This document shows positions 1 to 16,480 of a stretch of 56,029 nucleotides of DNA, piece by piece. The stretch lies in the IMG/VR virus record IMGVR_UViG_3300021559_000001, positions 1 through 56,029 of that record, one strand, 5' to 3'. The DNA comes from a virus. Its lineage: Duplodnaviria; Caudoviricetes. A program made the position numbers and the translations under genes. Position 1 is the first letter of the stretch. Each line of letters starts with the position of its first letter. The notes beneath the pieces were generated by a model, which was not told the origin of the DNA, did no database searches, and was given only the letters and a program-made list of their open reading frames with translations.

Positions 1-29
1 CATCCGCTGAAAATCGCTGAAGCGCTGCC
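1..29. repeat. Terminal 29-bp direct repeat (identical to 56001-56029); circular-contig overlap
   Basis: catccgctgaaaatcgctgaagcgctgcc occurs at both ends; an ORF crosses the junction in frame. Confidence 0.95.
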
Positions 30-464
30 GGAGTTGGGATTGGTTTTGAATCCGTGAACCTCCGCAACCAGGTAGCCGGTTCCTGTGGTTGTGATCTGAA
101 TTCGCACGTAGGGGAAATAGCCCGTTGCGCGAATCTCTCCTTGGGTGGTTGCTGTTGTCGGATTGGTGAATGGGGATACGATCGTGCCGGCGAAGTTGAC
201 GAAGGTTCCGGCAATGCCTCCTGTTCCCAAGGGAGCATCCTGCAGGAGCACCGAGACTGTTGCGAAGCCGTTGGAAGAGTAGGTCACTACGAAGCCATCG
301 CAGCCCGCGAATCGATTGTCTATATTCTGGCTGGTGAAGGTTCCTGCTGTGGTGATGGGGGGATTTACGAATTTACCGCAGTCTGGCTGTTGTGAGGTGA
401 CGGGGGTGAGTTGCTGGGCTTGGAGGAGAGTACCTAAGAAGAGTGTAATTAGAGTGAGTTTCAT
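1..464 (-). CDS. N-terminal part of a ~332-aa secreted/virion protein that spans the circular junction (continues 56000->55466)
   Basis: ATG at 464 gives MKLTLITLFLGTLLQAQQ... (signal-peptide-like); reading through the junction (..FSG-C-TAGSPCV-VDGPT..) stays in frame with ORF 55466..55978. Confidence 0.8.
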   Translation of the reverse strand, partial: MKLTLITLFLGTLLQAQQLTPVTSQQPDCGKFVNPPITTAGTFTSQNIDNRFAGCDGFVVTYSSNGFATVSVLLQDAPLGTGGIAGTFVNFAGTIVSPFTNPTTATTQGEIRATGYFPYVRIQITTTGTGYLVAEVHGFKTNPNSGSASAIFSG

Positions 465-521
465 GATAAACCGCCGTCGTGCTGTCCAGCCGGTTCGGAA
501 TGCCAGTGCGCGGGAAATGTC

Positions 522-550
522 TTGACCCATTCGGGCCGGCGTAGTACAAC
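522..550 (+). promoter_or_regulatory. sigma70-type promoter for the tRNA
   Basis: TTGACC-17 bp-TACAAC, 6 nt upstream of the tRNA 5' end. Confidence 0.65.
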
Positions 551-556
551 TTCAAA

Positions 557-628
557 TGCGGCGTGGAGCAGAGGCAGCTCGGCAGGCTCATAACCTGTAG
601 GTCGCCGGTTCGAGTCCGGTCGCCGCAA
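557..628 (+). tRNA. tRNA-Met(CAT), initiator-like
   Basis: Acceptor TGCGGCG/CGCCGCA, D-arm GAGC..GCTC, anticodon loop CTCATAA, T-arm GCCGG-TTCGAGT-CCGGT; no encoded CCA. Confidence 0.9.
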
Positions 629-671
629 TTGGGAAAACTTGGATAAACCCTGCATAGCGAGGGACGGTCCA

Positions 672-736
672 TCCGGCGCGAGAGCGCGATTGTTGGTGGT
701 TGTGAAAAGGGTCCGGCGCGAGAGCGCGATTGTTGG
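672..736. repeat. 25-bp direct repeat x2 (40-bp period)
   Basis: tccggcgcgagagcgcgattgttgg at 672-696 and 712-736. Confidence 0.9.
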
Positions 737-764
737 CCCAGCCGTCCAGCCTCCCGAAAATATC

Positions 765-793
765 TTGACCGCTTCCCGGTCTTCCGTTACACT
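765..793 (+). promoter_or_regulatory. sigma70-type promoter
   Basis: TTGACC-17-TACACT upstream of ORF 806. Confidence 0.6.
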
Positions 794-805
794 GAATCTC
801 CCCGC

Positions 806-997
806 ATGAACGTTCACATTATGAACCAACCTACTGTGTACGAACTGTACGCCACACTGGCGCGCCTGGTTGACGGCGGCCATGGAGCGAGGCCGATCAT
901 TATCTGTCACGGTCGCAAGAAGTTGGATATCATCCAGGTTGCAACTCGCCCGAATAATCCCGACGCGCCGGCCGAAATCGACACGCGGGAGAGGTAA
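806..997 (+). CDS. Hypothetical cassette protein (63 aa)
   Basis: ATG ORF after a promoter, followed closely by ORF 1001. Confidence 0.55.
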   Translation: MNVHIMNQPTVYELYATLARLVDGGHGARPIIICHGRKKLDIIQVATRPNNPDAPAEIDTRER

Positions 998-1000
998 AAT

Positions 1001-1252
1001 ATGCCAGGGTTGCTGAAACCAAGTGCTTGCTGTCCATGTTGCGGAGTCCCGTTGATGGGGCTCGCCGATTTGACCACATCGACGACAGTGACACGCGAGT
1101 ATTTCCACGAAAAGCAAAACGGGGAGCTGCGGCGTTCCAAATGTACGAAACGCTTCACGGATTTGCGGGCCGCTGCCAACGAACGGAGCGCTCTGGAAGT
1201 CCACTGCGCACTGGCGAGCACAGGCCGTCGCGGACAGTATCACCCAAACTAA
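1001..1252 (+). CDS. Hypothetical Cys-cluster cassette protein (83 aa)
   Basis: GAGGT RBS; CCPCC; ends inside motif B. Confidence 0.6.
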   Translation: MPGLLKPSACCPCCGVPLMGLADLTTSTTVTREYFHEKQNGELRRSKCTKRFTDLRAAANERSALEVHCALASTGRRGQYHPN

Positions 1253-1260
1253 AGTCATTT

Positions 1261-1812
1261 TCATAGCCACGGATACTCCGTTCTTGGCCAGATATACCCT
1301 GTAAGCGCGCAGATCGTTTTCCCTGCTGGGTCTAGGGGTCCGCTTCCTGGGTTGGCGAAGTTCACGAAATACTGAAGCAATTGCCCGGAGAGCAGCGGAA
1401 TTCCTTGCCCCACAACATCGAAGGGCACGGTTAAGCTTCCGAGAGAGGTGCGGATATTGTCGAAAAATGGAATGTAGCGCCGGTCCTGCTGGACTCTCCA
1501 CACGATATCCCCGGATTCCTCGACGAAGCCGAACGAGTTCCAGACGTTCGTCATGCTGATTAAAAGGCCGTCGTAGCCCAGTGGAATGCGTTCGGAGAAT
1601 ACCAGATGGTCGGCGCCGTCGATGAGCCCCACTGAGGCGAGAGCTTTCCGCGGCTGCCAGCGCTTCGAGGTTTCGGGCGGCTGCAGAAATGGCGTGAGCC
1701 GGTTCGATTTCGGCCGGTTGGCCACGATCCTGCAGAACTCGCGTTGGGAGTGTTTCAGCCATTGAGAGGCTTGAATCAGATCAGTGTCACATGCTCCAAG
1801 GTTTCCTAGCAT
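1261..1812 (-). CDS. Putative minor structural beta-sandwich protein (183 aa)
   Basis: AAGGA RBS after motif A; lies in the structural operon; beta-strand pattern. Confidence 0.6.
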   Translation of the reverse strand: MLGNLGACDTDLIQASQWLKHSQREFCRIVANRPKSNRLTPFLQPPETSKRWQPRKALASVGLIDGADHLVFSERIPLGYDGLLISMTNVWNSFGFVEESGDIVWRVQQDRRYIPFFDNIRTSLGSLTVPFDVVGQGIPLLSGQLLQYFVNFANPGSGPLDPAGKTICALTGYIWPRTEYPWL

Positions 1813-1961
1813 AGATTGTTCCTTTGGGGTAAACCGCCGTCGTGCTGTCCGCCAAGGCTTCCGGGTGTCCTTCGCGCGGTGAAAGTACCAGTACAGAATG
1901 CCGCTTGAGAATGTTGGGAAACCCTTGTTTTCGATATTCTGACCGAGTATTCTATAGACCC

Positions 1962-2477
1962 ATGATCACCGCCGAACTGCAAAAAGAAATCGACAGTGCC
2001 CTTGAAACCACTCTGATGTTTGCGCCTAAGGGTGCAACCCTCAAAGAACTTGCCGCGCGAGCTTACAATTCCAATCGTCCGATATTCGATCAGGCTCAAC
2101 CCACCTGGATGCTGGATCGTATTGAGTGGATGATAGCGAGAAAGCGTAGGACGATAATTTCTGTTGATGCTGAGGAGCCCGCCCAATTCATGCTCCCTGG
2201 TTTTGAACGTATCCCCCGACGCCTCACAATGAAAAGCGGGAAACGTGTTGCTTTGCAGAACGCGATTCTTTCTCAACTGCGCGAGTATAGAGCCGCCCTG
2301 ATCGTGCAACTGACGAATTACCGGAACACGCTCGCTTCGAAAGATCCGGCCCAACATCCGAGAGTTCTCGCCCTCGACCGGCTGATTGAGTTGATGGAAG
2401 CCCACTCCGTCAAAGGTAAGACTGTCACAGTGGGCGACGTTATGGCCGCCGAGCGCAAAAAACAGGAGTGGCGCTAG
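1962..2477 (+). CDS. Cassette hypothetical protein (171 aa), paralog of 51509..52156
   Basis: Promoter TTGTTT-17-TATTCT (1925-1953); shares FERIP..L.NA.L..L..RA..L.RLI.LM.A with ORF 51509. Confidence 0.75.
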   Translation: MITAELQKEIDSALETTLMFAPKGATLKELAARAYNSNRPIFDQAQPTWMLDRIEWMIARKRRTIISVDAEEPAQFMLPGFERIPRRLTMKSGKRVALQNAILSQLREYRAALIVQLTNYRNTLASKDPAQHPRVLALDRLIELMEAHSVKGKTVTVGDVMAAERKKQEWR

Positions 2478-2536
2478 AGCCTCCGCGCAATGCCGACTCC
2501 GAAGCCGCGTCGATAGTCGAGCCCAAACTAAAAGCA

Positions 2537-3103
2537 TCACTTTGGCTCCAAAAAAAACATCGCCAGTTGACAGGACACATTATTATCCGACCCTGGCTGG
2601 GAATCGTTGGACACTTCACAATGGATCTGGCCCGGTTCCAATATTAGCCGCGGCTCATCTAGCAACTCGATCGGCGGGTTCAGCGTGTTGAACGTGGTCG
2701 TCACCGTCGAACCGCCCTTGATTCCTTGCCCTGCCTGCGGACGGTCGTAGATTCCCATCCCTGTGAACGATTCACGTATCATGACGCTGAACTTGGATTG
2801 CACGATCCCATCGTTGTTTACCGCGAAGGTCAAGCCCCACAGGTAGGAGCCGGGGCGTACCTGGAACTCGAGAAACTCCGTCTTGCCGGGTGGAATGTTC
2901 GTCGAGTTGGTATTGTTCGGGTTGGTGAATTGCTTCGGGCAGATGAAAACGCGCGGCCGGTAGCTGTCGGCCGCCAGTCTCAAATTCTGCATGGTCTCGT
3001 TTTGAAGGCAGTTCCAATACCAGTTCGATCCTTGGAGGGGGCGGGTTCCAAAGATTGATCCATAGCAGAAGCCGTCGAGTATTTGGGGGTAGTTTGTTAG
3101 CAT
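2537..3103 (-). CDS. Putative minor structural beta-sandwich protein (188 aa)
   Basis: AAGGAG RBS before ATG 3103 (MLTNYPQ), just downstream of motif A. Confidence 0.65.
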   Translation of the reverse strand: MLTNYPQILDGFCYGSIFGTRPLQGSNWYWNCLQNETMQNLRLAADSYRPRVFICPKQFTNPNNTNSTNIPPGKTEFLEFQVRPGSYLWGLTFAVNNDGIVQSKFSVMIRESFTGMGIYDRPQAGQGIKGGSTVTTTFNTLNPPIELLDEPRLILEPGQIHCEVSNDSQPGSDNNVSCQLAMFFLEPK

Positions 3104-3162
3104 GAGGCTCCTTGGAATCTTGGGGGTAAACCGCCGTCGTGCTGCGGAGGAAGGTTTCGGGT

Positions 3163-3190
3163 TTGACTTCGCGCGGTGGAAGTGTATAAT
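3163..3190 (+). promoter_or_regulatory. Strong sigma70-type promoter inside a cassette
   Basis: TTGACT-16-TATAAT. Confidence 0.65.
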
Positions 3191-3195
3191 CGTTT

Positions 3196-3283
3196 CGGCA
3201 GCTTGACGATCCGTGGTTCTGTTGGGCGCTTTATTTCGGGATACTCTCCGAGGCCCACGCTTGACCTTGCGCCGATCAAGCCG
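3196..3283 (+). ncRNA. Candidate small structured RNA
   Basis: Follows a consensus promoter; no ORF; ends pair (CGGCAGCTTGA/TCAAGCCG) with inner stems TGGGC/GCCCA and TCGG/CCGA. Confidence 0.4.
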
Positions 3284-3450
3284 TTCAAACTGGCCCCCGC
3301 GCAATGCCGATTCTGAGCCTGCGTCGATCCTTCAGCCCAAACTAAGGTCCTCATCCTGTAAGTACCTAGAACCAACGGCCTAGGTGAAGAAATAGAACCG
3401 AATTCGGACACGCTGGGACTGTTTCCCGCGTCTCTAAGGCAGGAGAATAA

Positions 3451-4014
3451 ATGTATGAAAACTTTCTGGATAGCAATGTTATACTTGGCGATGCTCTGGC
3501 CTGGTTGGCAGTTGAGATCGAGCGTTCTGACATCCACGTCCGCCATCAATGGCAAGCCGTTGTTTACTTCCACGTCCCCTGCGGGGTTTGTCAGGAAATG
3601 ACGCTGCACGATCAGTACGGAGAGGTCGAGGTTGGAATCGGCGATCTGTTTGAAATGAAGACGGGTCCCGCACAGAATCAATTCTCCGCTACGCTGGCTG
3701 TTGTCTGTCCCGAGCCGCTGACATTCAAGGGCCAACCGATTATCTGCGTACGTCTGAAACAAGGCGTCCTTGAGCATAACGGATCGAGATTTGAATACTC
3801 CGAAGAGCGGAACAATCTGCTTTTCAACCTCACTGGCGATCAGGTGGCGCGCCTGATCCGTGAGCATCGCCTGATGACCTTCGATATTCCCGCGCCGCAA
3901 TTGCCGCAGTTGCCGCAGAATATCTTGGACGAGAAAGTAATCAAGCCTCGCCGCGCTTCCGACAGCAAGAAACCCGCACGAAAGCATGAGCCAAACCAAA
4001 GCAGCCTGTTTTAG
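3451..4014 (+). CDS. Hypothetical cassette protein (187 aa, CxxC)
   Basis: AGGAG RBS, ATG start, antisense to the structural operon. Confidence 0.75.
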   Translation: MYENFLDSNVILGDALAWLAVEIERSDIHVRHQWQAVVYFHVPCGVCQEMTLHDQYGEVEVGIGDLFEMKTGPAQNQFSATLAVVCPEPLTFKGQPIICVRLKQGVLEHNGSRFEYSEERNNLLFNLTGDQVARLIREHRLMTFDIPAPQLPQLPQNILDEKVIKPRRASDSKKPARKHEPNQSSLF

Positions 4015-4073
4015 CCATACCAAACCATGGCAGAGGCTCTGGCGATTCGTTGTAGGGCTTCCTTTGGTGGCTG

Positions 4074-4202
4074 TCATAGCAGCAATCCCAGATCCTCGCA
4101 GAGTTCGCGGTATTCCCGATAGTTGTCGCCGCGGTCAGAACTTTTCCAGAATTCCTCTTCGCGAAACTCACGCATGATGCGCTGGGCCTGAGTTTCCGGC
4201 AT
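4074..4202 (-). CDS. Small hypothetical protein (42 aa)
   Basis: RBS (GGGGGA) supplied by the inner end of motif B at 4208. Confidence 0.45.
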   Translation of the reverse strand: MPETQAQRIMREFREEEFWKSSDRGDNYREYRELCEDLGLLL

Positions 4203-4269
4203 GAGTTCCCCCGCGCAATGCCGACTCCGAGCCTGCGTCGAATATTGAGCCCAAACCATAAAAACCCTG

Positions 4270-5166
4270 TTACCCGTTTACCGGCCCACTCACTGGAATT
4301 CGTTCCATCCCATCAAATATAATCTGCCACACATTCCCTTGAGCAACTGATTGCACCGCGTACAGATCGACTAGAATCTGACTCTGCCGCGGATAAAGGA
4401 TCCCTGGACAGGGGAACACTCCAGGCATCGGCGCCGGATCGGCCTGAAAGATCGGGGAAATCTGGTCGATGATGTAGGAATCCGGCACGGGCGCATTGGA
4501 AAGCGGATAGCCGCTCGAATCGTACAGCCAGTAATTGAAGACGCCCACGCGATCGGTGGTGACCAGCGGGACGCCTCCCGACAATGGCGGAGTGGCCGTT
4601 CCCGTGTCGAGTTGAATGATCCGATGGAGCTCGAAGTCGAGCCCGGCATTGATTCTTACGCTGAACCGCTGGTGATTCCCTCTCGTCCACGTTACAGGCC
4701 CCACGTTGAGCACGTACTGATAGCCGCGGGTGATGTAACCGGGACACGGATACGGCGCCTTCTCCCACGGAAACCGCTTGACCCCCTGGAATGCAAGGTA
4801 CGCAAGGAAGTCGGTTCCACCCGAGACCGCTACCGCTTTCGTAATCGTGGCGAGGTCGAAACGGATCTGGCTTTCCCGCGGGTAGTGTTTTTCAGGAACG
4901 ACGCTGATGTCCGCTTGTGGCCCTGCGATCGCCGCGGCCGGCAGCCAGGCGTAGGAGTTGCTGTAGTTGCGATAGGCGAAGAATTGCGCGATCGACGACG
5001 CGCCCGCGATCCGTCGAAGGATAAATTCCGCATCTCCATCGAGTTTGGTCGAGAGGGTATTGTTGACGCTGGTTCCATTCGTCAACCCGGTTCCGTCGAA
5101 CATGTAGATGTAAGGCACGTCATGGCAGCCTGGGGGGGTGATGTAGGGGGAGTATAGGTTGCTCAT
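4270..5166 (-). CDS. Putative two-domain jelly-roll-like minor capsid/vertex protein, paralog of 6744..7598
   Basis: Closely similar to ORF 6744 throughout (MSNLYSPY.TPPGCHD.PYIY.FDGTGLTNGT); internal two-repeat structure. Confidence 0.7.
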   Translation of the reverse strand: MSNLYSPYITPPGCHDVPYIYMFDGTGLTNGTSVNNTLSTKLDGDAEFILRRIAGASSIAQFFAYRNYSNSYAWLPAAAIAGPQADISVVPEKHYPRESQIRFDLATITKAVAVSGGTDFLAYLAFQGVKRFPWEKAPYPCPGYITRGYQYVLNVGPVTWTRGNHQRFSVRINAGLDFELHRIIQLDTGTATPPLSGGVPLVTTDRVGVFNYWLYDSSGYPLSNAPVPDSYIIDQISPIFQADPAPMPGVFPCPGILYPRQSQILVDLYAVQSVAQGNVWQIIFDGMERIPVSGPVNG

Positions 5167-5302
5167 GAGGATGCCTTTTGGGGTGAACCTCGGTCGTGCT
5201 GTCCGCCAAGGTTACGCGCGGCCGTGCCCCCGGTGGAAGTGATTTCCCCCGCGCAATGCCAGCCGCGAACCTGCGTCGATAATCGAGCCCAAACTAAAAA
5301 CG

Positions 5303-6508
5303 TCATGACGGTAGCAAGCACCTCTTAACGGGTCCCGGACTGCTGGGCGACAGAAGCATGACCAGTAGACTATGAGCGGTGGCCGGAGCATGGGCGGCAT
5401 CCTGCTCGGTCCAGGTGATACCGTCTGCTGATTTGAAGATGCGAATCTGATAGCTGATCGGCAGCCCCTCATGGAAAAACAGCGTTACGTAGAGCGGATT
5501 ACCAGCCCCGCCCGGCCCGACGTAGTAACCGGCATCGGTCGCGCCGTTTTGGGATAGCGCCGTGACAATCCCGAAAGCTCCGCTTGCGAGCTGCGCCGCC
5601 GATAGAGAGAAAATAAATTGGCTAGCGGCAGGCACGCCAGGCACGGGATTAGCTACCGCGTCATAAAACAAAGCCGGCGCGCTCCAGACTCCCGCGATTC
5701 GCGTGCTCTTGAACACGCTAATCACCGTCGGCGAGTTGTTCGTGTTCCAAAAGAGATTCAAATTGCCGGAATTGTCCACAACCAGGTACTCATCCTGATC
5801 GATATCGGTATTCGGGAGCGTGGTGTCGACCTGTTCAAATGTCCAAACCGGAGTAATCGAAGTGGCTGGATTTCCGAACCATACCCCAACCGGAAACGGC
5901 GATACTGTCGAGAAATACCCGAAAGCGATCTGACCGTTCCATAGCACTGGCGTCGAAATGAAACCACTCGGCGCACCCGCATCCGCCAGGATGACTTGAC
6001 CAAGATTCACCACGCCGCCCGTCGATAGAGTGCCGTGCATCATGATAGTAGGGCTCAGAATATTAGTTTGGTGCTGAAAGTAGATGACATGGATTAAATT
6101 GTTCTGATCTACGATTGCCTGAACGAAGCCCGGCTCATTGCTAACGTTGACCACACTTGGAGTGAAAACAGTTTGAGGTCCCCAGACGCCGCCGCTGAAG
6201 ACCCGGTAAAACAGGTTGCTTCCGCTGCCCGTCCCGCCCCCGAAGAACACGTAAACATCGCCGCTCGCAACCTGACAGCTAGCTCGAAATGTTCCATTGG
6301 CAGGCAACGTAAACCCGGCATCGGGAACTCCGTATGCATCCGTCACCATGCTGTAGTTGACCACATGGATATGGCCTGGAAAGATGGGGTCGACGTAGAC
6401 CAGGCGGATGAAACCGGCTGCTGGCTTCTGAAATGGCCCCATAAAGCCATTGCTGGCGTTATTCTGCAAGCTCAGGTTTGTAGGGTCGATCAGGTTTGGG
6501 CTGGGCAC
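5303..6508 (-). CDS. Beta-propeller (BNR/Asp-box-like) putative spike/receptor-binding protein
   Basis: Repeated blades (YRVFSGGVW, VDQNNLIHVIY, VDNSGNLNLFW) and the Asp-box KSADGITW. Confidence 0.6.
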   Translation of the reverse strand: MPSPNLIDPTNLSLQNNASNGFMGPFQKPAAGFIRLVYVDPIFPGHIHVVNYSMVTDAYGVPDAGFTLPANGTFRASCQVASGDVYVFFGGGTGSGSNLFYRVFSGGVWGPQTVFTPSVVNVSNEPGFVQAIVDQNNLIHVIYFQHQTNILSPTIMMHGTLSTGGVVNLGQVILADAGAPSGFISTPVLWNGQIAFGYFSTVSPFPVGVWFGNPATSITPVWTFEQVDTTLPNTDIDQDEYLVVDNSGNLNLFWNTNNSPTVISVFKSTRIAGVWSAPALFYDAVANPVPGVPAASQFIFSLSAAQLASGAFGIVTALSQNGATDAGYYVGPGGAGNPLYVTLFFHEGLPISYQIRIFKSADGITWTEQDAAHAPATAHSLLVMLLSPSSPGPVKRCLLPS

Positions 6509-6577
6509 GGTTCAGAGTACTCCTTGTGTTTGAATCCGTGCTGGCTGCGCTATGATGAATGGTGCGAGCGCGATCCT

Positions 6578-6736
6578 ATGCCCTGTCTGGAATACGTGCA
6601 AATATGCGTCTGCGGTCATACCTACAGCCTTCACACGCACACAGTATGCCCGGTTTGTTTTCGATGGCCCGTTAAAAGCGTGCCCCGCGCAACGGCAAGC
6701 ACGGAGCAGCCGTCGACAAATAAGCCCAAATACTAA
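6578..6736 (+). CDS. Small Cys/His cassette protein (52 aa)
   Basis: ATG directly after motif C'; CxCxH..CPVC; ends in motif B (RATASTE). Confidence 0.5.
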   Translation: MPCLEYVQICVCGHTYSLHTHTVCPVCFRWPVKSVPRATASTEQPSTNKPKY

Positions 6737-6743
6737 GCCCATT

Positions 6744-7598
6744 TCAGATCACCCCCTCATCCGGAACCCGCTCCACTCCATCAAACACAATCTGCCAGCA
6801 ATCCCCGTTCGGCGTGCTCTCGGTCGCGTAGAGGTCTACTACGATTTGAGAGAACCGCGGATAGAGCAAACCGGGAACCGGGAAAACTCCCGGCATGGGA
6901 CTAGGGTCCGCTTGGTCGATGGGGGAAATTTGATCGAGGACGTAGGAATCGGGAACCGGCGCGTTTGAAACCGGATACCCGTTGGCATCGTACAGCCAAT
7001 AATTGAAAACTCCGACCCGATTTGTCGGGACGTTGGTTCCGTTGCACTGAATGATTCTCATCAACTCGAAATCGAATCCTGCGTTGACGCGCACGCTGAA
7101 CCGCATGTACTGGGGTCGAGTCCAGGTGACCGCTGGCACGTTGAGCACGTACTGAAAGCTTCGCGGCGTGAAAGGGCAGGGACGAACCGGACTGCTCCAC
7201 GGGAAGCGCTTGACGCCCTGGAACGCGAGATACGACAGGAAATCCGTTCCACCCGAAATTGCCACGGCCTTTGCGATCCCGCCGAAGTCAAAGCGGATCT
7301 GGCTGTCTCGCGGATACACTTTCTCCGGCGCCACGCTGATATCGGCCTGCGGACCTGTTACGGAAGCCGCCGGAAGCCACACATACGAATTGCTGGCGTT
7401 GCGGTAGGTGAAGAATTGCGCGATCGAGGACGCGCCGGCGATTCGTCGAAGAATAAAATCCGCATCCCCATCGAGTTTCAGCGAGAGCGTGTTATTGACC
7501 GTGGTTCCGTTCGTGAGGCCCGTACCATCGAACACGTAGATATAGGGCGCGTCGTGACATCCAGGAGGGGTTAGGTAAGGCGAGTATAGATTACTCAT
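6744..7598 (-). CDS. Putative two-domain jelly-roll-like minor capsid/vertex protein (284 aa)
   Basis: GGAGG RBS before ATG 7598; paralog of 4270..5166. Confidence 0.7.
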   Translation of the reverse strand: MSNLYSPYLTPPGCHDAPYIYVFDGTGLTNGTTVNNTLSLKLDGDADFILRRIAGASSIAQFFTYRNASNSYVWLPAASVTGPQADISVAPEKVYPRDSQIRFDFGGIAKAVAISGGTDFLSYLAFQGVKRFPWSSPVRPCPFTPRSFQYVLNVPAVTWTRPQYMRFSVRVNAGFDFELMRIIQCNGTNVPTNRVGVFNYWLYDANGYPVSNAPVPDSYVLDQISPIDQADPSPMPGVFPVPGLLYPRFSQIVVDLYATESTPNGDCWQIVFDGVERVPDEGVI

Positions 7599-7631
7599 GA
7601 AACCTCCGAGTATCGCCACGGCGCGCCACAT

Positions 7632-8090
7632 TCAATATCCCCTCCGGTAGCGGTTCGGACCCCGGAAAACCACTTGCACGTTTTGATTGACCGCGGCCAC
7701 GTTGATGATGTCAAAGTGGATCGCTTGCCGCTGCCCAGGTCCTCTTCGATAGCTTACGGCCGGAAATTGCGGGAAGGGATTAGCCCACGTTCCCGGCGTG
7801 TTGTTCGAGTACAGAAAGCCGTCGCTGATGTAGTTGCCGGCGTCGTCCTGGACACGATAGAGGAAGCCCGGTCCTGAGACAGCGAAGATGAACGCGCGCC
7901 AGATAAATTCGTCCGCATCGCTGAGCACGATTACCTGATTGTTGAGCACCTGGTTCCCTGTCATCACCTGGAATCCGCCAGAGGGGGGCCAGATCATAGC
8001 GGCGTCCACGTCTTCGCAGCCTTGGGGGGAGGCTGGGTTGAACCCGTTCAAGTAAGGTGGAGCTGCCGGGTTGAAGATTTCTTGGCTCAT
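7632..8090 (-). CDS. Putative single jelly-roll-like structural protein (152 aa)
   Basis: Shares GNQ.L..DAD.F.W..F...QD..GNY.S with ORF 8574 and the repeats of 4270/6744. Confidence 0.65.
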   Translation of the reverse strand: MSQEIFNPAAPPYLNGFNPASPQGCEDVDAAMIWPPSGGFQVMTGNQVLNNQVIVLSDADEFIWRAFIFAVSGPGFLYRVQDDAGNYISDGFLYSNNTPGTWANPFPQFPAVSYRRGPGQRQAIHFDIINVAAVNQNVQVVFRGPNRYRRGY

Positions 8091-8164
8091 AGGATGAGTG
8101 GGGGTAAACCTCGGTCGTGCTGTCCAGACGATTCGGAAATACCCGAGCCCTGATACAATGTGCA

Positions 8165-8393
8165 TGTTAGCGTCGGCGTGGTGGCAAGCACGCTCGGAAG
8201 TGTGAGAACGACGGGGTTACTACAGGGGTTCTGATATGCGCGTGATGAGTGACAGCAGGGGGAAGCCCCCGGGATCACATGCACCAAGTCACGGCTGTTC
8301 GGTCCGGTATACTGCGAAGTTAAGCCCTGCTTGACGGTCGATCTGCGCTCACTGCTGAGGGTCGAAAGCCGGTTCGAATCCGGCACGCTAACA
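8165..8393 (+). ncRNA. tRNA-like RNA with ~160-nt expanded anticodon arm
   Basis: Acceptor-like helix TGTTAGCGT/ACGCTAACA, D-arm GCGTG-GTGGCAAG-CACGC, perfect T-arm GCCGG-TTCGAAT-CCGGC; extended -10 TGaTACAAT at 8151-8159. Confidence 0.7.
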
Positions 8394-8573
8394 ACGGCTG
8401 AACTATGACAAGAAAACAGCGCAAGCAATGAAATGCAAACCGGCGCTACCGTGTGCGGCGCAAACAAAAGCGGCAGAAGATGCGAAATGCCCAAAGGCCT
8501 ACCGGGAGATAATTCCCCCGCGCAATGCCGATTACTAACCTGCGCCGATAGTCGAGCCCAAACTAAAAGCATT

Positions 8574-8996
8574 CTACCTAATCCCCATCCGAGTGCTCAT
8601 CGCCTCAGGTCCACAAACAGGAGGTGGAACCACAAATCTCTTGATCCCGACGAATCCAAGCTGAATAATATTCTGAACTCCGCTCTGCTCCTGCAGGTCC
8701 GCTGTGATCTGAGAGCCAGGCGGGAACACGCGGGGCTTGCCCATGAAAGTGTAAGGTAGCGGCCCTTGTGCGTTGATGTTGGCCGCCAGAATCGGCGAAC
8801 TCGAGAAATAGTTACCGCCTGAGTCCCGGAACTGCACCGTGAACAGGATCGAAGTGAAGGCGTTCAGGATGAGCCCCAGCAAGAGAAAGTCAGAATCGGT
8901 GTCGGTGCGTACGCCGTCGCCTGTCAGCAGTTGATTGCCTACCATTGTCACGTCGTAGTTGTAGGTGAAGCTTAAGTCTCCGAAGTATCCGTTCAT
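8574..8996 (-). CDS. Putative single jelly-roll-like structural protein (140 aa)
   Basis: GAGG RBS; DTDSDFLL..VQFRDSGGNYFSS pattern homologous to ORF 7632. Confidence 0.65.
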   Translation of the reverse strand: MNGYFGDLSFTYNYDVTMVGNQLLTGDGVRTDTDSDFLLLGLILNAFTSILFTVQFRDSGGNYFSSSPILAANINAQGPLPYTFMGKPRVFPPGSQITADLQEQSGVQNIIQLGFVGIKRFVVPPPVCGPEAMSTRMGIR

Positions 8997-9112
8997 AGCT
9001 GGGCCTCTTGAATCTTTGGTGATAAACCGCCGTTGTACTCTCGTCTCGCTTCGGAGATACCCGAGCGCTGGGGCCGGTTGCGCGGGCCATGCTGGACCGC
9101 TACAGTGAGCGC

Positions 9113-9499
9113 ATGGGAACGTATTACCGCATTGACAATCACGACAGGTGCGAAACCATCGATCTGTACCAGGTCACCAACATCAAAGGCGGCGCGTTTC
9201 AACGGTGGTCTTTGCAACAAGCCGTACTGAATGTCTTCCTGGGTTTCGGCCGCGATTACCGCTGGCCGGAATGGACAGGCCGATGGGAGTTGAACCGCAT
9301 CCGCATCCATAACGACGGGGAGGACGATGCGCCGTGTGACGAGTGGCCCGACGCTGGCATTCTGTTTTTGGCCGATCTCGATACAAGGGGCGTGCTGGAA
9401 GGATGGATATCCTACATCGGGTGGACTGATACCTGGGTTGCTATGCATGGAACGGAGGATTTGCGCAAGTGGATCGCTGAGCAACGCGCGGTCCAGTAA
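9113..9499 (+). CDS. Cassette hypothetical protein (128 aa), probably leaderless
   Basis: TTGCGC-17-TACAGT (9078-9106) with ATG 6 nt later; sits between motifs A and B. Confidence 0.7.
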   Translation: MGTYYRIDNHDRCETIDLYQVTNIKGGAFQRWSLQQAVLNVFLGFGRDYRWPEWTGRWELNRIRIHNDGEDDAPCDEWPDAGILFLADLDTRGVLEGWISYIGWTDTWVAMHGTEDLRKWIAEQRAVQ

Positions 9500-9579
9500 C
9501 CCGCAGGCTCCCCCCGCGCGAAGTCCAGCCCAGAGCGTAATCGTTAGTACGACCCAAACAAAAAGCATTTCCATAAAAG

Positions 9580-9625
9580 CGAAAGAGGAGGCGGACTCCC
9601 CCGAGAAAAGAGAAGAGCCCGCCTC
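9580..9625 (-). terminator. Intrinsic terminator after the putative major capsid gene
   Basis: Stem GAGGCGGGCTC/GAGTCCGCCTC followed by a pyrimidine/T-rich tract on the minus strand. Confidence 0.65.
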
Positions 9626-9659
9626 GAAACATCAAATCACCCCAAGAATCCAGAAAGAA

Positions 9660-10358
9660 TTACTGGATACCGCGGGCGTGCAATCCATCCAGAATCACGG
9701 CAGAGATAAAGTTTCCGGTCCCCGTGATTGTGTAGGAAGGTCCATACATGCCGGCGAAGAACTGAACGCCCTGCTCCAAAACGAGCGTAATGGCGATCGG
9801 CCGAATAGCGTCTTTCGAGGGCCAGCCGTTGGACAGAATCGAGGTACCGGACGCGGTCCCCAGGAAGTTCAAGCCGCCGCCCTGCGGAATCATCCACAGC
9901 GGAAGAGTCTGGTACGGCTTCCTCCCCATCGTAAAGACGAAGGCAAAGCCGGCCAAAACCGCCTCGGTGTCCACGATGCTATTCCGTGGATCGAGGTAGT
10001 AACGGTAGCAGTAGATAGCCAGCGCTTCCGGGTTCATGAGCTGGTTCGGCTGCGTCATGTTGGTCAAGTTCAGCGTCTTGTTCGCGGTGTTCTGGAAGAA
10101 CAAGGCTGTCGTCGTGTTTTCGGCGATGGTCTGCGCGCCGCCCGCGGCTCCGGTGCCGTTCACGGTCACCGTGTCGTAGACCGGCTCCGCTTGCACGTCC
10201 ATGGTGTCCTGAACGTACTGCTGAGCGCGGAAGGCTTCGAGGATCATGCGCTGCTGCTGGGTATACTGCCCCTGTCTTACGCCGCCTGGTCCGCCGCCGA
10301 CTTGATTAGCCTGATACACGTTTCGTGACAGGCCGAGAGGGTTTGCTTGAGTGGACAT
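9660..10358 (-). CDS. Putative major capsid protein (232 aa, inferred single jelly-roll)
   Basis: Strong AAGGAG RBS, followed by a terminator and preceded by a basic core protein; EPVYDT..FFQN..TL..TNM.QP.QL.NPE motifs; paralog at 29838. Confidence 0.6.
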   Translation of the reverse strand: MSTQANPLGLSRNVYQANQVGGGPGGVRQGQYTQQQRMILEAFRAQQYVQDTMDVQAEPVYDTVTVNGTGAAGGAQTIAENTTTALFFQNTANKTLNLTNMTQPNQLMNPEALAIYCYRYYLDPRNSIVDTEAVLAGFAFVFTMGRKPYQTLPLWMIPQGGGLNFLGTASGTSILSNGWPSKDAIRPIAITLVLEQGVQFFAGMYGPSYTITGTGNFISAVILDGLHARGIQ

Positions 10359-10443
10359 CGTTATTTCGTCTCCTTGACAGTTCATTCGAATTTGTCAGGG
10401 AGAGGCTCCGGTCTTTAAGGTCGAAAACTCTCCCGTCCTGCTG

Positions 10444-11433
10444 CTACCAGGCGCTTCCCCACGCGCCCATAGTCACCTGCGCGCCACGCTGCATCGCCGT
10501 GGGGCTTTGGGCCGGAGGCGCGAGCTGCATCGGCGCGCGTACCGGAATTGTCGGCAAGGGGAATCCTGCCGGGGCGAAATCGCCCATGCCGCTGAGCGCG
10601 AACTGGCTCAACGGTCCAAACGAAAGGGCGTTGATGGCGACATTGATGGTCTGCGCGATGCCGCCGCCCCAGACGCCTACCGCGAACGGTCCAGGCATCC
10701 ATTTGTGCGCCGCCCATCCTGCGGCAAAGGCAATCGCGCCCGTGGTCAATACCGCCATCCAGGGATTAGCGATCGCTTGCGGCACCATACCCCCGATGAC
10801 GGACGCGCCTTTCTTGGCCGCGAAAACTCCCAGCAGAATGCCGCCGCCGAACTTCACGGCCTGAGCCGGGGTCTGCCCGAACGGATTACGCGATCCGCGC
10901 GGTGAGTGACGATGACTGCGCGCGGTTGCTCTCTTCTTATAGTGGCGATGCGGATTCGATGATTTGGCCCGGCGTCGAGAGCTTTTAGCCGAGGCCCGTT
11001 TCCTCTTTGTCATGCTCTTTCTCCTGTGTGGATTTACCGGACCTGCGGTTAGAAGCCAGTAGGGACCGGGGTTGCTGCGTTTCCGCTTTGAATTGGCCTT
11101 AGCTCGTTTCTTGGCGGGTGGTCTGGACTTGTAGACGATGCGGGTCTTGTACTTGGTCTTATAGACCGTTCTCGTCTTGGGATTCGAGCGCGCCCGTTTG
11201 CGCGTTCGATGGGAATTGGCGGCCGCCCTTTTACGGGGACGGTGCGAAGCGTGCGAAGCCGAAACGCGATGTTTCTTTGGCCGGTGAGTATTGGCCTTGG
11301 CGCTGGCCTTTCGTTTGCGAGCGGCCTTGAGTCCCGCCCGCTGGCGCGCAGTCCCGAAGAACTTGATCTGTTTCGCCGTCAGTTTCTTGCGGTGCGGATT
11401 GGCCGCTCTTGTCTGGAGTTTGGTTTTGACCAT
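10444..11433 (-). CDS. Highly basic core/DNA-condensing protein with Asn-Pro repeats and C-terminal hydrophobic segments
   Basis: K/R-rich N-terminal ~185 aa punctuated by NP; C-terminal TM-like helices; GMGDFAPAGFPLP motif. Confidence 0.7.
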   Translation of the reverse strand: MVKTKLQTRAANPHRKKLTAKQIKFFGTARQRAGLKAARKRKASAKANTHRPKKHRVSASHASHRPRKRAAANSHRTRKRARSNPKTRTVYKTKYKTRIVYKSRPPAKKRAKANSKRKRSNPGPYWLLTAGPVNPHRRKSMTKRKRASAKSSRRRAKSSNPHRHYKKRATARSHRHSPRGSRNPFGQTPAQAVKFGGGILLGVFAAKKGASVIGGMVPQAIANPWMAVLTTGAIAFAAGWAAHKWMPGPFAVGVWGGGIAQTINVAINALSFGPLSQFALSGMGDFAPAGFPLPTIPVRAPMQLAPPAQSPTAMQRGAQVTMGAWGSAW

Positions 11434-11449: not shown

Positions 11450-11800
11450 TTACTGCAAAATAGTGTGCGGCTGCATAGCGTAGAGTTTGGCTATGATCGT
11501 CGTGCCGGCTACCGCACCGCCTGAGCCGGCCGCGTTTGTCTTTGTCAACGTGATGTTCGTTGCCGTCACCGCCACTCCCCAGTTGGGAAGCGCCGCATTC
11601 GCGTAAGTAACCACGTTTTGAAGAAGCGCTAAATCGGGCGCGACCGAAACGGGTCCCGCCGCGGTCTGGATTACAAAGCCGTGCGGGAAGGTCACGGTAG
11701 TATCGGCGTCGAGCGCCGTGATGTTCCACGATTTGTATTGCGGACTCGCCGGAGCAACGATTCCCGATCCGCTTATAACTGGTGTCGCTACGATTGCCAT
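11450..11800 (-). CDS. Small spike/decoration protein, paralog 1 (116 aa)
   Basis: PVISGS..PQYKSW..NWG..GSGG..PHTILQ shared with the next two ORFs. Confidence 0.7.
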   Translation of the reverse strand: MAIVATPVISGSGIVAPASPQYKSWNITALDADTTVTFPHGFVIQTAAGPVSVAPDLALLQNVVTYANAALPNWGVAVTATNITLTKTNAAGSGGAVAGTTIIAKLYAMQPHTILQ

Positions 11801-12815: not shown

Positions 12816-13205
12816 TCATTGCAAAATCGTGTGCGGCACCATGGCTACGAGCTTGGCTGCCGGTGTACCGCCCGATCCTGTCGCGGGTTGTTTGGCCAGA
12901 ATGATCTGGGTTGGAGTCACCGTGATTCCCCAATTTGCTAAGGTTGAGAGGGCTCCACTGGTAATCGGCTGTATATCGACCAGATCTGGCGCAATCGGGT
13001 TGTCATTGTTGTCTTCAAAATCGTGAAGGACCGTCAATAACGTATCCGAATCCGCGGCGTTGACAAGCCAGGATTTATATTGAGGCCCGCCCATGCCCGC
13101 GTTACCCACGGGAAGGGATGACCCGCTGATAACTGGAACAATCCCTGAGCCTACTGCGGCCCATTTACCGCTCAGCCAGAAGGCTGCCATTTCAAGCGCA
13201 AGCAC
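12816..13205 (-). CDS. Small spike/decoration protein, paralog 3
   Basis: Same PQYKSW...PHTILQ domain; start uncertain. Confidence 0.65.
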   Translation of the reverse strand: MLALEMAAFWLSGKWAAVGSGIVPVISGSSLPVGNAGMGGPQYKSWLVNAADSDTLLTVLHDFEDNNDNPIAPDLVDIQPITSGALSTLANWGITVTPTQIILAKQPATGSGGTPAAKLVAMVPHTILQ

Positions 13206-16169: not shown

Positions 16170-16480
16170 CAGAAGAACCCTCCCCCGCGCCGAGATGATC
16201 CGCCCCGCTCAATGCGCCGCCGCTCACCTCTATACCGCTCTTCGGCATCTTCGAGCGCCGCCTTGCGCTTTCGGCTCTTCTTGATTGGCCGCGCTACTTT
16301 CCGATACGCTTTCTTCGTCCCGCTGAACAGCGAAGAGAGAACCCAGAGGCCAAGCGCCCCGGCGCCGATCATCATCCACGGGGAGCCGGAGGTGAGACTG
16401 GACAGGTCGATCCCGGTCGCGGATGTGTCTAGCCCCGTAACCGGATCGATTGCGCCCATGCCTCTGAGATTCACTTGCAT
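16169..16480 (-). CDS. Membrane-anchored basic virion protein
   Basis: LRGMGA N-terminus, one TM helix, basic tail. Confidence 0.7.
   Translation of the reverse strand: MQVNLRGMGAIDPVTGLDTSATGIDLSSLTSGSPWMMIGAGALGLWVLSSLFSGTKKAYRKVARPIKKSRKRKAALEDAEERYRGERRRIERGGSSRRGGGFF

Follow-up and report, generated by a model that had tools for sequence, protein, structure and literature searches.

Antisense accessory-gene cassettes in the gene chain of a soil virus and the stop-free sense frames that may bridge them

Two kinds of known element offer themselves for comparison with short inserts in a viral gene chain: moron-like accessory cargo, and MITE-like or other transposon-like units with inverted-repeat ends. 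We analysed the complete 56 kb genome of an uncultivated soil virus (the window), which the first-pass annotation had described as carrying moron-like cargo in standardised slots of a structural operon. Its seven inserts between consecutive minus-strand genes were recovered within a few bases of the positions given there. The protein-like genes of the chain lie on the minus strand at 3-464, 1261-1812, 2537-3103, 4270-5166, 5303-6508, 6744-7631, 7632-8090, 8574-8996 and 9660-10385, and open frames of at least 300 nt cover 95-96% of the minus strand and 60-62% of the plus strand in positions 1-26100. The label 'structural' is itself a reading of the region: nine of ten proteins tested there had no Pfam match, and none of the three Pfam-negative proteins also searched against PHROGs had a match. 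The gene annotated as the capsid gene (9660-10385) has 63 homologues, none of them named, and its product gave a structure model (pLDDT 70.5) whose top comparison scores, Z 7.1 and 7.0, fall below the tool's own bar of 8. The features of the region are as follows, relay ORFs being stop-free frames on the strand of the chain.

461-1264, minus strand: relay ORF R1, 267 codons; overlaps at both ends, its ATG with the TGA of gene 1261-1812 and its TGA with the ATG of gene 3-464
465-517, plus strand: L site of insert E1 (nhmmer E 5e-10); outer end overlaps the ATG (464-462) of gene 3-464
557-628, plus strand: tRNA-Met (CAT), E1 cargo (ARAGORN; Rfam RF00005, 62.9 bits)
806-997, plus strand: cargo gene c806p of E1, 63 aa; homologues in relatives L010 and G001 (tblastn, 66% and 76% identity)
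1001-1252, plus strand: cargo ORF c1001p of E1, 83 aa, a weaker prediction; ends inside the weak R site 1200-1252
1806-2540, minus strand: relay ORF R2, 244 codons; GTGATG at the overlap with the stop of gene 2537-3103, TAG 4 nt inside gene 1261-1812
1824-1885, plus strand: L site of E2 (E 1e-14)
1962-2477, plus strand: cargo gene c1963p of E2, 171 aa, no family
2478-2533, plus strand: R site of E2 (E 6e-16)
3097-4077, minus strand: relay ORF R3b, 326 codons; ATGA overlap with R3a, TAA 4 nt into gene 2537-3103
3122-3345, plus strand: L site 3122-3181, small non-coding cargo of about 105 nt, R site 3293-3345; near-consensus promoter at 3163-3190 ahead of the cargo
3351-4014, plus strand: conserved 100-nt leader (3351-3450) and cargo gene c3451p, 187 aa; homologues in G001 and L010
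4074-4259, minus strand: relay ORF R3a; starts in R site 4204-4261 and contains the small sense-strand gene c4074m (about 4074-4202)
5163-5306, minus strand: relay ORF R4, 47 codons; ATGA overlap at each end
5178-5299, plus strand: empty unit, L site 5178-5239 joined directly to R site 5242-5299
6512-6736, plus strand: X repeat (6512-6581), 52-aa Cys-rich ORF (6578-6736) and R site 6683-6736; no L site
6512-6742, minus strand: relay ORF R5, 76 codons; TGAaATG after gene 6744-7631, stop 3 nt before the GTG at 6508
8087-8572, minus strand: relay ORF R6, 161 codons; TAGaATG junction with gene 8574-8996, TGA overlapping the ATG at 8090
8099-8568, plus strand: insert E6, with L site 8099-8153, about 350 nt of cargo and R site 8511-8568; no plus-strand ORF of at least 60 aa
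8993-9574, minus strand: relay ORF R7, 193 codons; starts 88 nt past the stop of gene 9660-10385, behind the hairpin; TGA overlaps the ATG at 8996
9017-9569, plus strand: insert E7, with L site 9017-9073, cargo gene c9089p (9089-9499, 136 aa) and weak R site 9542-9569
9580-9603, minus strand: terminator-like hairpin and T-run 3' of gene 9660-10385; conserved in relative L247
9660-10385, minus strand: candidate gene for an abundant protein; beta-sandwich of jelly-roll type, no named family

The sites said to bracket the inserts proved to be real repeats, far above chance: the left-site core matched the window 8 times against 0.01 expected, and two right-site cores matched 15 times against 1.35 and 7 times against 0.08. 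Iterated HMMs (nhmmer) placed L sites starting at 465, 1824, 3122, 5178, 8099 and 9017 and R sites starting at 1200 (weak), 2478, 3293, 4204, 5242, 6683 and 8511; the weak R at 9542-9569 did not come from this placement. All seven inserts thus have an R (two of them weak) and six of seven an L, but the insert placed at 6524-6736 has the X repeat in its stead, which recurs at 20209-20278 and 22188-22248. L and R form an imperfect inverted-repeat pair, and the L model matches R sites on the opposite strand. As annotated, R adjoins the stop of the upstream gene, or the terminator-like hairpin after gene 9660-10385, and L adjoins the next start. Nor are the sites confined to this region: the whole genome, on both strands, holds 19 L-type and 18 R-type matches, and the relay property described below is absent from those of its right arm. 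A 23-base gapped L pattern occurred in six stretches on three viral contigs other than the window's own record, and once in 185,579 prokaryote genomes, a stretch that nhmmer does not support and that compares with about 0.8 chance matches by our own estimate from the size of the collection. The L and R sites therefore appear, from these searches, to be restricted to this virus group.

Among the cargo, the annotated tRNA of the first insert was confirmed as tRNA-Met, and the insert called empty is indeed L joined directly to R. The claim of a tRNA-like RNA at 8101-8570 was not confirmed, as no tRNA-like or other Rfam family was found there at E<=1; we observed only an 18-nt T-arm-like word. Rfam likewise gave no match for the small non-coding cargo in 3122-3345. 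Most inserts had also been credited with a promoter of their own. A consensus scan of 1-10500 returned seven sites, all on the plus strand, against 5.4 +/- 2.6 in shuffled sequence, and these coincide with the claimed positions only at 3163-3190 (11 of 12 consensus bases) and at 765-793, where TTGACC-17-TACACT precedes c806p; the count comes to two strong promoters and two or three weak ones, with no enrichment over shuffles. By eye, 523-551 and 8126-8156 are promoter candidates. The protein c3451p is 50% and 47% identical to its homologues in the two relatives (tblastn), and its leader is 88% identical to G001 and 79% to L010. No homologue was found for c1001p; this ORF, c1963p, c9089p and the 52-aa ORF, all without homologues, were called from their length and a crude codon score only.

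The first-pass annotation had argued that such inserts need a way to avoid disrupting late expression. That need is real, but the evidence favours a mechanism absent from its list. On the strand of the structural genes, every insert is spanned by a stop-free relay frame that begins at or overlapping the upstream stop and terminates in an overlap with the next start. Seven of seven slots in the window, five of five in L010 and the one slot in L247 are each spanned by a single sense frame or by several linked through overlaps; in G001 the coverage is complete apart from a 79-nt gap. The relay frames contain no stop in 1375 codons, where 46 would be expected from the 92 in 2734 codons of the remaining two sense frames (P ~4e-21), and the 685 relay codons outside plus-strand ORFs also have none (23 expected, P ~7e-11). 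The junctions are of the coupling type (ATGA, GTGA, TGATG, TAATG). This points to an uninterrupted sense-strand frame across every insert, coupled to the flanking genes by stop/start overlap. The slot after gene 9660-10385 differs: its relay frame starts 88 nt past the stop of that gene (107 nt in L010), behind the hairpin, and has no obvious SD, so that coupling there cannot be direct.

The cargo genes carry a matching signature. TTA, CTA and TCA, which read as stops on the opposite strand, were absent from the cargo codons of the window (0 of 698), L010 (0 of 537) and G001 (0 of 483), where Leu and Ser content, with the backbone codon usage of the window applied to all three genomes, predicts 13.7, 11.0 and 11.2 (joint P ~1e-17). 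This amounts to zero against about 36 expected over 15 antisense cargo genes, which are not fully independent, c806p and c3451p each being counted in three genomes. Backbone genes use these codons 166 times in 8171, and the plus-strand genes of the block at 26068-31840 use them 49 times in 1678. Composition does not explain the avoidance, since GC3 is nearly equal in cargo (0.626) and backbone (0.647). Differences between c806p homologues at codon positions 1/2/3 numbered 14/10/32, 16/7/29 and 21/13/27, and c3451p substitutions were likewise biased to position 3. Judged by this pattern, the plus strand is the conserved coding strand of these two cargo families, the ones with homologues, and the relay frame opposite them is thus kept open rather than conserved as protein. 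R6 could nevertheless be a real gene, since E6 has no plus-strand ORF.

Comparison with relatives indicated that the inserts come and go. L247 is close, with two flanking proteins 90% and 96% identical in amino acids, and lacks window positions 9008-9587 (E7) and 8097-8580 (the whole E6 unit), where its flanking genes overlap as GTGA; at a point where the window has 33 nt of spacer, it carries an empty L/R unit of 130 nt. The genes c806p and c3451p each occupy three different slots across the window, L010 and G001. In G001, c806p is 76% identical whereas identity in six of seven backbone proteins is 28-39%, and a 59-nt stretch beside the L site of E2 matches G001 at 97% identity. The only sequencing run to contain the region, probably that of the source DNA, showed no variant contigs. 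The inserts thus appear to be mobile cargo, with the same cargo genes in different slots. Identical inserts in all homologous slots had been named as an outcome that would refute moron-like cargo in standardised slots. Equivalent slots of the relatives instead hold other cargo, an empty unit or no unit at all, and cargo changes slot, so that proposal is supported.

Site-site pairing in RNA had been proposed, beside protein looping and temporal separation, as a way of protecting late expression. L and R might close a long hairpin round the cargo in the late transcript, so that an RNase III-type cut or an insulator effect removes or neutralises the insert. Pairing is possible: of 13 L-R pairs, 11 have duplex energies between -40 and -55 kcal/mol. 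Empty units are predicted to fold as long imperfect hairpins, and six natural ones have kept the outer GGG/CCC and inner GCGCGG/CCGCGC pairs, with changes on both sides at 5 of 21 predicted pairs. However, permutation gave no advantage in pairing to cognate over non-cognate arms (p 0.20 in the window and 0.83 in L010), strand asymmetry is not consistent, shuffled sequences fold as well as the empty units do (z -0.60 to +0.41) and the covariation term of these units is -0.03. Removal of the insert from RNA would also make the strongly maintained stop-free frames needless. We consider this explanation unlikely, while noting that it can coexist with relay translation.

There is also only a low chance that the units are MITE-like or transposon-like and are moved by a dedicated enzyme recognising the inverted L/R ends, the open frames being a secondary adaptation. 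Inverted-repeat ends in many copies, solitary ends, a short 'empty' form, cargo always central in the palindrome and clean presence or absence against L247 all fit such an origin. Yet Pfam searches of 46 window and 4 L010 proteins found no transposase, integrase or recombinase family, and no target-site duplication was visible by eye at the two junction pairs with an unoccupied homologue in L247; non-identical flanks blur the boundaries. The arms also differ systematically, TAAACCGCCGT being kept in L and GAGCCCAAAC in R.

Quite improbable, in our view, is that L is a divergent promoter region and R a bidirectional terminator, each gene forming its own transcription unit with nothing 'interrupted'. 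L does lie between divergent starts and R between convergent ends, and some cargo promoters are in or beside L; but L has no fixed conserved -35/-10, cargo promoters stand at varying distances from it, and R has no hairpin and T-run on either strand (12 terminator-like sites against 11.2 in shuffles, none within an R site). The inverted L/R relation, the stop-free sense frames and the overlapping junctions would be left unexplained. That there are no inserts, the minus-strand ORFs being ordinary virion genes and the plus-strand ORFs antisense shadows, is highly improbable: minus-strand ORFs do tile the region without gaps, ORF 3097-4077 has a positive codon score (18.7) and a tblastn match in G001 (45% identity), and E6 has no opposing ORF, but two regions are precisely missing in L247 with their flanking genes then overlapping, c806p and c3451p substitutions peak at what is relay position 1, the plus-strand ORFs of E1, E2 and E7 have higher codon scores than the relay frames there, the plus strand carries a tRNA gene and a near-consensus promoter, and one L010 cargo gene, lying antisense to the chain, encodes a bona fide DUF1003 protein (E 3e-24).

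We therefore favour, with a probability of roughly 0.6, recombination-shuffled cassettes that are translationally transparent by way of relay frames. They would be portable accessory-gene units of a soil-virus family, uncultivated and with genomes close to 55 kb. Each lies in an intergenic slot of the tightly packed minus-strand chain, is bounded by conserved arms of about 60 nt and holds small ORFs, a tRNA or non-coding stretches oriented from L towards R, antisense to the chain; the bare L-R junction is the empty form. Such cassettes would be gained, lost and moved among slots and genomes, most likely by homologous recombination in the common arms, a route favoured because no dedicated enzyme was found; simple excision between arms is not expected, since L and R of one cassette are inverted. 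R supplies a start codon overlapping or closely following the upstream stop, and L an SD-like GGNGG and a stop overlapping the next start, with cargo genes phased codon-on-codon with the relay frame and avoiding the three codons that would close it. Ribosomes ending one virion gene may then restart on the relay ORF, cross the antisense cargo and terminate on the next start. If the relay is translated, translational coupling would be preserved and the insert would not be left as naked RNA that might be open to Rho-dependent polarity or decay. The inserts would then be accessory cassettes of moron-like kind, lodged antisense in the chain and probably made transparent to its translation.

Seven inserts lie between consecutive minus-strand genes in the left arm of the window, at the positions where the first-pass annotation had placed them, and each is crossed by a stop-free frame on the strand of the surrounding genes. 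The core of that annotation's observation is confirmed, and its interpretation is partly supported. The protein-like genes of this backbone are as follows.

Backbone genes of the left arm
3-464, minus strand, protein-like gene
1261-1812, minus strand, protein-like gene
2537-3103, minus strand, protein-like gene
4270-5166, minus strand, protein-like gene
5303-6508, minus strand, protein-like gene
6744-7631, minus strand, protein-like gene
7632-8090, minus strand, protein-like gene
8574-8996, minus strand, protein-like gene
9660-10385, minus strand, protein-like gene

The inserts had been described as bracketed by sites. The repeat families are real, and a left arm (L) is present in six of the seven inserts, but 6524-6736 carries a different repeat (X) in its place. 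The insert described as empty, 5178-5299, consists of L joined directly to the right arm (R). The tRNA of the first insert is a genuine tRNA-Met. The tRNA-like RNA proposed for 8101-8570 found no support, since Rfam reported tRNA only, both across the whole window at the gathering cut-off and on 1-10000 at E<=1; a Flavo-1 match was sub-threshold, inside a gene, and was rejected. Promoters had been assigned to most inserts. They are clear in two (3163-3190, with 11 of 12 matches, and 765-793), but those of two or three others were seen by eye only. The promoter scan gave seven sites, all on the plus strand, against 5.4 +/- 2.6 in shuffled sequences, which is no enrichment, and cargo ends showed no terminator-like sites. 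Cargo proteins had no Pfam, PHROGs or PADLOC match, with the exception of DUF1003 for one cargo gene of the related contig L010. Repeat X forms a third family (6512-6581, 20209-20278, 22188-22248) that contains TTGAAT-15-TATGAT, and an R-type site comes after every copy, immediately at 20209-20336 and otherwise past a small plus-strand ORF (52 aa; approximately 66 aa). At 1200-1252, 6683-6736 and 22420-22470 a plus-strand cargo ORF enters an R site, in the same frame in all three, and ends at the TAA or TAG of R; two of these three ORFs share the tail ...RATASTE....

Three related viral contigs allowed the slots to be compared between genomes.

Related viral contigs
L010, from a 56-kb contig, homologue of gene 9660-10385 58% identical
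G001, 53.7 kb with terminal repeats, homologue of gene 9660-10385 39-42% identical
L247, 2-kb metagenome contig, two proteins 90% and 96% identical

Backbone order was kept in all three and slot contents differed. L247 lacks window 9008-9587 and window 8097-8580, at which its two backbone genes overlap as GTGA, and has a 130-nt empty unit at the place of a 33-nt spacer in the window. L010 has an empty unit at the slot of the sixth insert (E6, 8099-8568) and the DUF1003 gene at the slot of c9089p, a plus-strand cargo gene of the window. Two further cargo genes recur in different slots: c806p lies before gene 3-464 in the window, before the 1261 homologue in L010 and before the 4270 homologue in G001, and c3451p lies after 4270-5166 and before 2537-3103 in the window, before the 4270 homologue in L010 and before the 3-464 homologue in G001. 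Relatives thus carry other cargo, an empty unit or nothing, not identical inserts in all slots, and since slot content differs among homologous genomes the earlier description of moron-like, mobile cargo in standardised slots stands. Between the window and G001, c806p is 76% identical, against 28-39% for six of seven backbone proteins, and a 100-nt leader is 88% identical between genomes, far above their genome-wide likeness. A 59-nt stretch just inside the L of the second insert (1895-1953) is 97% identical to one beside another L in G001 (stretch L252, 1580-1638), in contrast to proteins that are mostly 30-75% identical.

No transposase, integrase or recombinase Pfam family was found among the 46 window proteins; most of these match nothing at all and may include a novel enzyme. 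No target-site duplication was seen by eye at two junction pairs with an unoccupied homologue, the flanks of which differ between genomes. Since no such enzyme was recognised, homologous recombination in the common arms would be the economical route of cassette exchange. Where L247 lacks the seventh insert (its 640-680), it retains TTAGTTTG, a word similar to the outer end of R that may have been left behind by the loss or may mark a favoured target. DNA reads of the likely source sample showed no variants, and three read 'joints' were rejected because they map to repeats of the window's own genome; one of them, 6581 to 6684, mirrors the X and R unit at 20209-20336.

The stop-free frames that cross the inserts, which we call relay frames, and their junctions with the flanking genes are listed here.

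Relay frames across the inserts
R1, 461-1264, minus strand: upstream junction ATGA; downstream ATGA
R2, 1806-2540, minus strand: upstream GTGATG over the upstream stop; downstream stop 4 nt into the next gene
R3a and R3b, 4074-4259 and 3097-4077, minus strand: ATG 13 nt past the upstream stop; ATGA joins R3a and R3b; stop 4 nt into the next gene
R4, 5163-5306, minus strand: upstream junction ATGA; downstream ATGA
R5, 6512-6742, minus strand: upstream TGAaATG; stop 3 nt before GTG
R6, 8087-8572, minus strand: upstream TAGaATG; downstream ATGA
R7, 8993-9574, minus strand: start 88 nt past the upstream stop, behind a hairpin; downstream ATGA

No stop occurs among the 1375 relay-frame codons. In the other two sense frames over these stretches there are 92 stops in 2734 codons, from which 46 would be expected in the relay frames (P ~4e-21). 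Openness extends to relay codons outside the plus-strand cargo ORFs, which take in L, R, the strand opposite the tRNA and promoter regions (0 stops in 685 codons, 23 expected, P ~7e-11). The pattern was found in five of five slots in L010, in the single slot of L247, and in all slots of G001 except for one 79-nt gap. Each of the three empty units compared (window 5163-5306, L010 slot B and the L247 slot) has one open sense frame. The units sit between genes with a start and stop of their own; that of L247 alone continues in frame into the next gene. On the minus strand of the left, virion-type arm 95-96% of the sequence lies in open frames of at least 300 nt, versus approximately 60% on the plus strand, and the relay property is confined to this arm. 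R as a universal start module was rejected, as the R frame in the right arm yields only short ORFs of 44-90 codons. Right-arm L sites, and the solitary half-units found there, are not tied to stop-free opposite frames. The open-access literature searched held no account of antisense cassettes kept stop-free for read-across.

Every plus-strand cargo ORF is in codon-on-codon phase with the relay frame, so that any TTA, CTA or TCA in a cargo gene would close the frame. In no other phase can openness be had by synonymous changes alone. The use of these codons is given below, with expectations from Leu and Ser content.

Combined use of TTA, CTA and TCA
Window cargo: 0 of 698 codons, 13.7 expected
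L010 cargo: 0 of 537 codons, 11.0 expected
G001 cargo: 0 of 483 codons, 11.2 expected
Window backbone genes: 166 of 8171 codons
Plus-strand genes of block 26068-31840: 49 of 1678 codons

Taken together, the three cargo sets give a P of ~1e-17; 15 cargo genes were tested, with two families (c806p and c3451p) counted three times each. The formula relating P to Leu and Ser content is the one that appears in the part of preprint 10.1101/724807 on this calculation. GC3 is nearly equal in cargo and backbone (0.626 versus 0.647), so the avoidance is not accounted for by base composition. Antisense genes of the right arm use TTA, CTA and TCA normally, and L and R sites are present there without the relay property. 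A cargo gene of G001 in the slot after the 9660 homologue (stretch L260, 18576-18989) opens with a twin-arginine-like signal (MDMDRREFFMALAG...) and has no TTA, CTA or TCA codon, as other cargo.

An open sense frame might also be a gene in its own right. Differences at plus-strand codon positions 1/2/3 were 14/10/32, 16/7/29 and 21/13/27 for c806p and 41/33/73, 35/32/62 and 36/22/66 for c3451p, and control backbone genes showed a position-3 peak too. Since differences concentrate at plus-strand position 3 in these two families with homologues, the plus-strand genes are conserved proteins; four window cargo ORFs have no homologues. On these substitution patterns the relay frame is maintained as open, without conservation as a protein. 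E6 has no plus-strand ORF, and its sense ORF might therefore be a gene.

The first-pass annotation had also offered pairing of the sites in RNA as a way to spare late transcription. Site counts far exceed chance (8 versus 0.01, 15 versus 1.35, 7 versus 0.08), and iterated profiles found 19 L-type and 18 R-type matches over the whole window, lying on both of its strands, with L and R present in relatives also. The L profile matches R sites on the opposite strand, and the arms are therefore imperfect inverted repeats of approximately 60 nt. They have in common the outer end TTTGGG, the middle GGYTTCGG and the inner end GCGCGG, and differ in blocks of their own, L keeping TAAACCGCCGT and R keeping GAGCCCAAAC. 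The arms are able to pair: 11 of the 13 cognate pairs have energies of -40 to -55 kcal/mol. However, there was no sign of selection for pairing as such: cognate pairs had no advantage over non-cognate pairs (permutation p 0.20 and 0.83), and L-R pairing had no strand bias. A structured RNA was likewise unsupported, as empty units folded no better than shuffles (z -0.60 to +0.41); across six natural empty units the covariation term was -0.03, and both sides had changed in 5 of 21 pairs.

A 23-base gapped L pattern was found in three viral contigs besides the window's own record. Among 185,579 prokaryote genomes it had one match, which has no nhmmer support and is at about the level of chance by our own estimate. 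This near-absence indicates that the sites belong to the virus group and are not a host repeat family. Two exact site patterns with 14 specified bases were rejected: they hit 117 and 119 stretches of viral contigs, with nhmmer support for one, the hits being single chance matches. Neither arm has conserved promoter hexamers at a fixed place, and R has no hairpin with a T-run. Elsewhere in the window, 38602-38731, 48599-48659, 49693-49748 and 18172-18229 hold back-to-back divergent L sites and lone palindromic half-units that match the L and the R profile alike.

Bacterial RNA that is not being translated is prone to Rho-dependent polarity and decay, and insertions in tightly coupled operons are expected to be polar. 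The tolerance of phages for accessory genes within virion modules is usually credited to promoters, terminators and timing. We propose that ribosomes would restart on the relay frame, read through the antisense cargo and pass on to the gene that follows, which would preserve coupling and spare an insert of 0.1-1.1 kb from being untranslated RNA. The R arm would supply the restart codon, and the L arm an SD-like GGNGG and a terminal stop; with these ends the cassette would be portable among slots, whatever the frames of its neighbours. At the E6 slot the L247 genes are coupled by a GTGA overlap and the window genes are joined by a stop, the relay ORF and ATGA, with no visible SD at the start of the downstream gene in the window. 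In the slot after gene 9660-10385, fresh initiation behind the hairpin would be needed.

The region holds a variant form of phage gene cassettes, whose replicated sequence signature, suggestive of translational relay, is strongly supported. The signature itself, strong and replicated, points to selection that would keep the opposite strand translatable between stop/start-coupled ends. More broadly, the L/R adaptors may form a natural 'plug-and-play' system that takes any small gene backwards into a coupled operon, through restart ends, a purge of three codons and ribosomes that relay across, and may represent a general, unrecognised escape from polarity for mobile cargo. To this reading, drawn from sequence comparison, we give a probability of about 0.45, slightly less than even.

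The window is an entire virus record, 56,029 bp long, that carries direct terminal repeats and has a 100% completeness rating. In the Pfam scan four of its 46 proteins had clear matches (a DnaB helicase, a DEAD/SNF2-type helicase, an N6/N4 DNA methylase and an ice-binding-like protein), and PHROGs named only the two helicases among 16 proteins tested. The protein of gene 9660-10385 had no match in GenBank phages; a large protein collection held 63 relatives, all unnamed, several of them from contigs of 52-58 kb. From the few database matches, the unnamed relatives and their absence from GenBank phages, we infer a family of uncultivated viruses.

The virion-type status implied by the term 'structural operon' is plausible and draws on a terminator-like hairpin 3' of gene 9660-10385 and on a structure model (pLDDT 70.5), predicted to be a jelly-roll type beta-sandwich, with Z scores under the bar. 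An earlier model from seven sequences (pLDDT 42) was left out of the structure search. The best VIA-align Z was 7.1, under the tool's own bar; the single-jelly-roll capsid proteins of SPV1 (Z 7.0, rmsd 3.2, 133 residues aligned) and HCIV-1 (Z 6.2) were both below its meaningful level, and Foldseek against the PDB gave nothing at E<=0.001. Atlas placed the PM2 P2 coat as the nearest named family (0.76), as a lead only, and the 'capsid' assignment of this gene is likewise a candidate and a lead.

Upstream of it, 10444-11433 encodes a 329-aa protein, conserved in L010 and four metagenome contigs, the N-terminal two-thirds of which are extremely Lys/Arg-rich and the C-terminus hydrophobic and Gly/Ala-rich; it may be an internal or DNA-binding virion protein. 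The genes 11450-11800, 11819-12799 and 12816-13205 form a set that includes the ice-binding-like protein (Pfam PF11999, E 9e-63), whose C-terminal domain of approximately 100 aa, ending ...PHTILQ, recurs in two small adjoining genes, and may be an interchangeable set of receptor-binding or decoration proteins. Genes 4270-5166 and 6744-7631, with 5303-6508 between them, are paralogues of approximately 295 aa (75% identical as proteins, nucleotide blocks 73-77%); L010 has a single copy and no 5303 homologue. Between a cassette and its 2537 homologue, L010 has a sense-strand GT4-family glycosyltransferase gene (15560-16726) that the window lacks.

Conserved linkers that standardise slots for cargo exchange are documented in a virus lineage with almost no recognisable proteins. 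The absence of TTA, CTA and TCA from embedded antisense genes is a simple test for any genome and, if relay is true, could locate embedded cassettes in other genomes. Relay, if real, would bring a further mechanism into moron and gene-cassette biology, account for a class of long 'antisense shadow' ORFs, which gene callers will wrongly report as proteins, and give a design rule for antisense payloads in operons.

Among known systems, the cassettes resemble the morons of lambdoid and other tailed phages, reportedly described by Juhala and Hendrix: both are extra genes between conserved virion genes, present or absent among relatives, with functions unrelated to their neighbours and, in some, a promoter or candidate promoter of their own. 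Presence and absence were found here (L247 lacks 9008-9587 and 8097-8580; L010 and G001 have other cargo), and strong promoter sites in two of the seven inserts, with weaker ones by eye in two or three more and no enrichment overall. Conserved flanking sequences are not described for morons, as PMC2839356 says outright. Unlike morons, the cargo here occupies standard L/R-bracketed slots antisense to its neighbours, opposite a stop-free strand.

PeSL cassettes of T4-type phages, as characterised in the relevant parts of PMC2839356 and PMC4122927, are ORFans flanked by intergenic motifs of approximately 60-100 bp that mark indels and are proposed to drive modular shuffling via homologous recombination. 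L and R likewise lie at indels and replacements between relatives. In that characterisation, PeSLs combine a sigma-70 early promoter with a terminator stem-loop, and are direct repeats, able to excise a circle, that occur in hyperplastic regions away from the virion module; L and R include neither a promoter nor a terminator as a fixed component, are inverted, lie inside the virion-type gene chain and carry restart and stop signals for the relay frame, a feature of L/R and not of PeSLs so described. The cassettes thus work like morons and PeSL cassettes yet lack the defining features of PeSLs, because they have no fixed promoter-terminator composition, have inverted flanks and sit inside the virion module.

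Terminal inverted repeats in many copies, as in MITEs, are present (19 L-type, 18 R-type). Rickettsia palindromic elements and other intragenic MITEs, in the part of PMC10969869 that treats them, are palindromes of approximately 100-150 bp that keep an open frame in translated sequence, and the 124-nt empty L/R unit is likewise palindromic with a maintained open frame. Those elements are described there as in-frame inside host genes and part of the protein, whereas L/R units are intergenic with their own coupled start and stop, interrupt no protein-coding gene in frame, bear up to approximately 1.1 kb of antisense cargo and occur in a virus. Integron cassettes share promoter-poor small genes, uniform orientation and imperfect palindromic bounds. 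The attC core consensus is RYYYAAC / GTTRRRY; the end words GCCCAAAC / GTTTGGGC have one extra base by eye and misfit it. Unlike integrons, the cassettes have two arms instead of one attC, are interleaved with essential genes, and came with no IntI-type integrase; PMC2839356 draws the integron analogy for PeSLs too, in the part concerned. REP/REPIN elements are a poor match, with one hit among 185,579 genomes instead of host-chromosome spread and no Y1-transposase family found.

For ordinary antiparallel ORFs, the relevant part of preprint 10.1101/724807 states that the frame '-1' antisense ORF remains free of stops when the gene has no TTA, CTA or TCA, and its title holds that essential proteins are unlikely to be encoded by such long antiparallel ORFs opposite prokaryotic genes. 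Compared with ORFs of the kind treated there, avoidance here is absolute in 15 genes and absent in same-genome controls, and the relay frames continue over non-coding stretches and are joined stop-to-start to the flanking genes.
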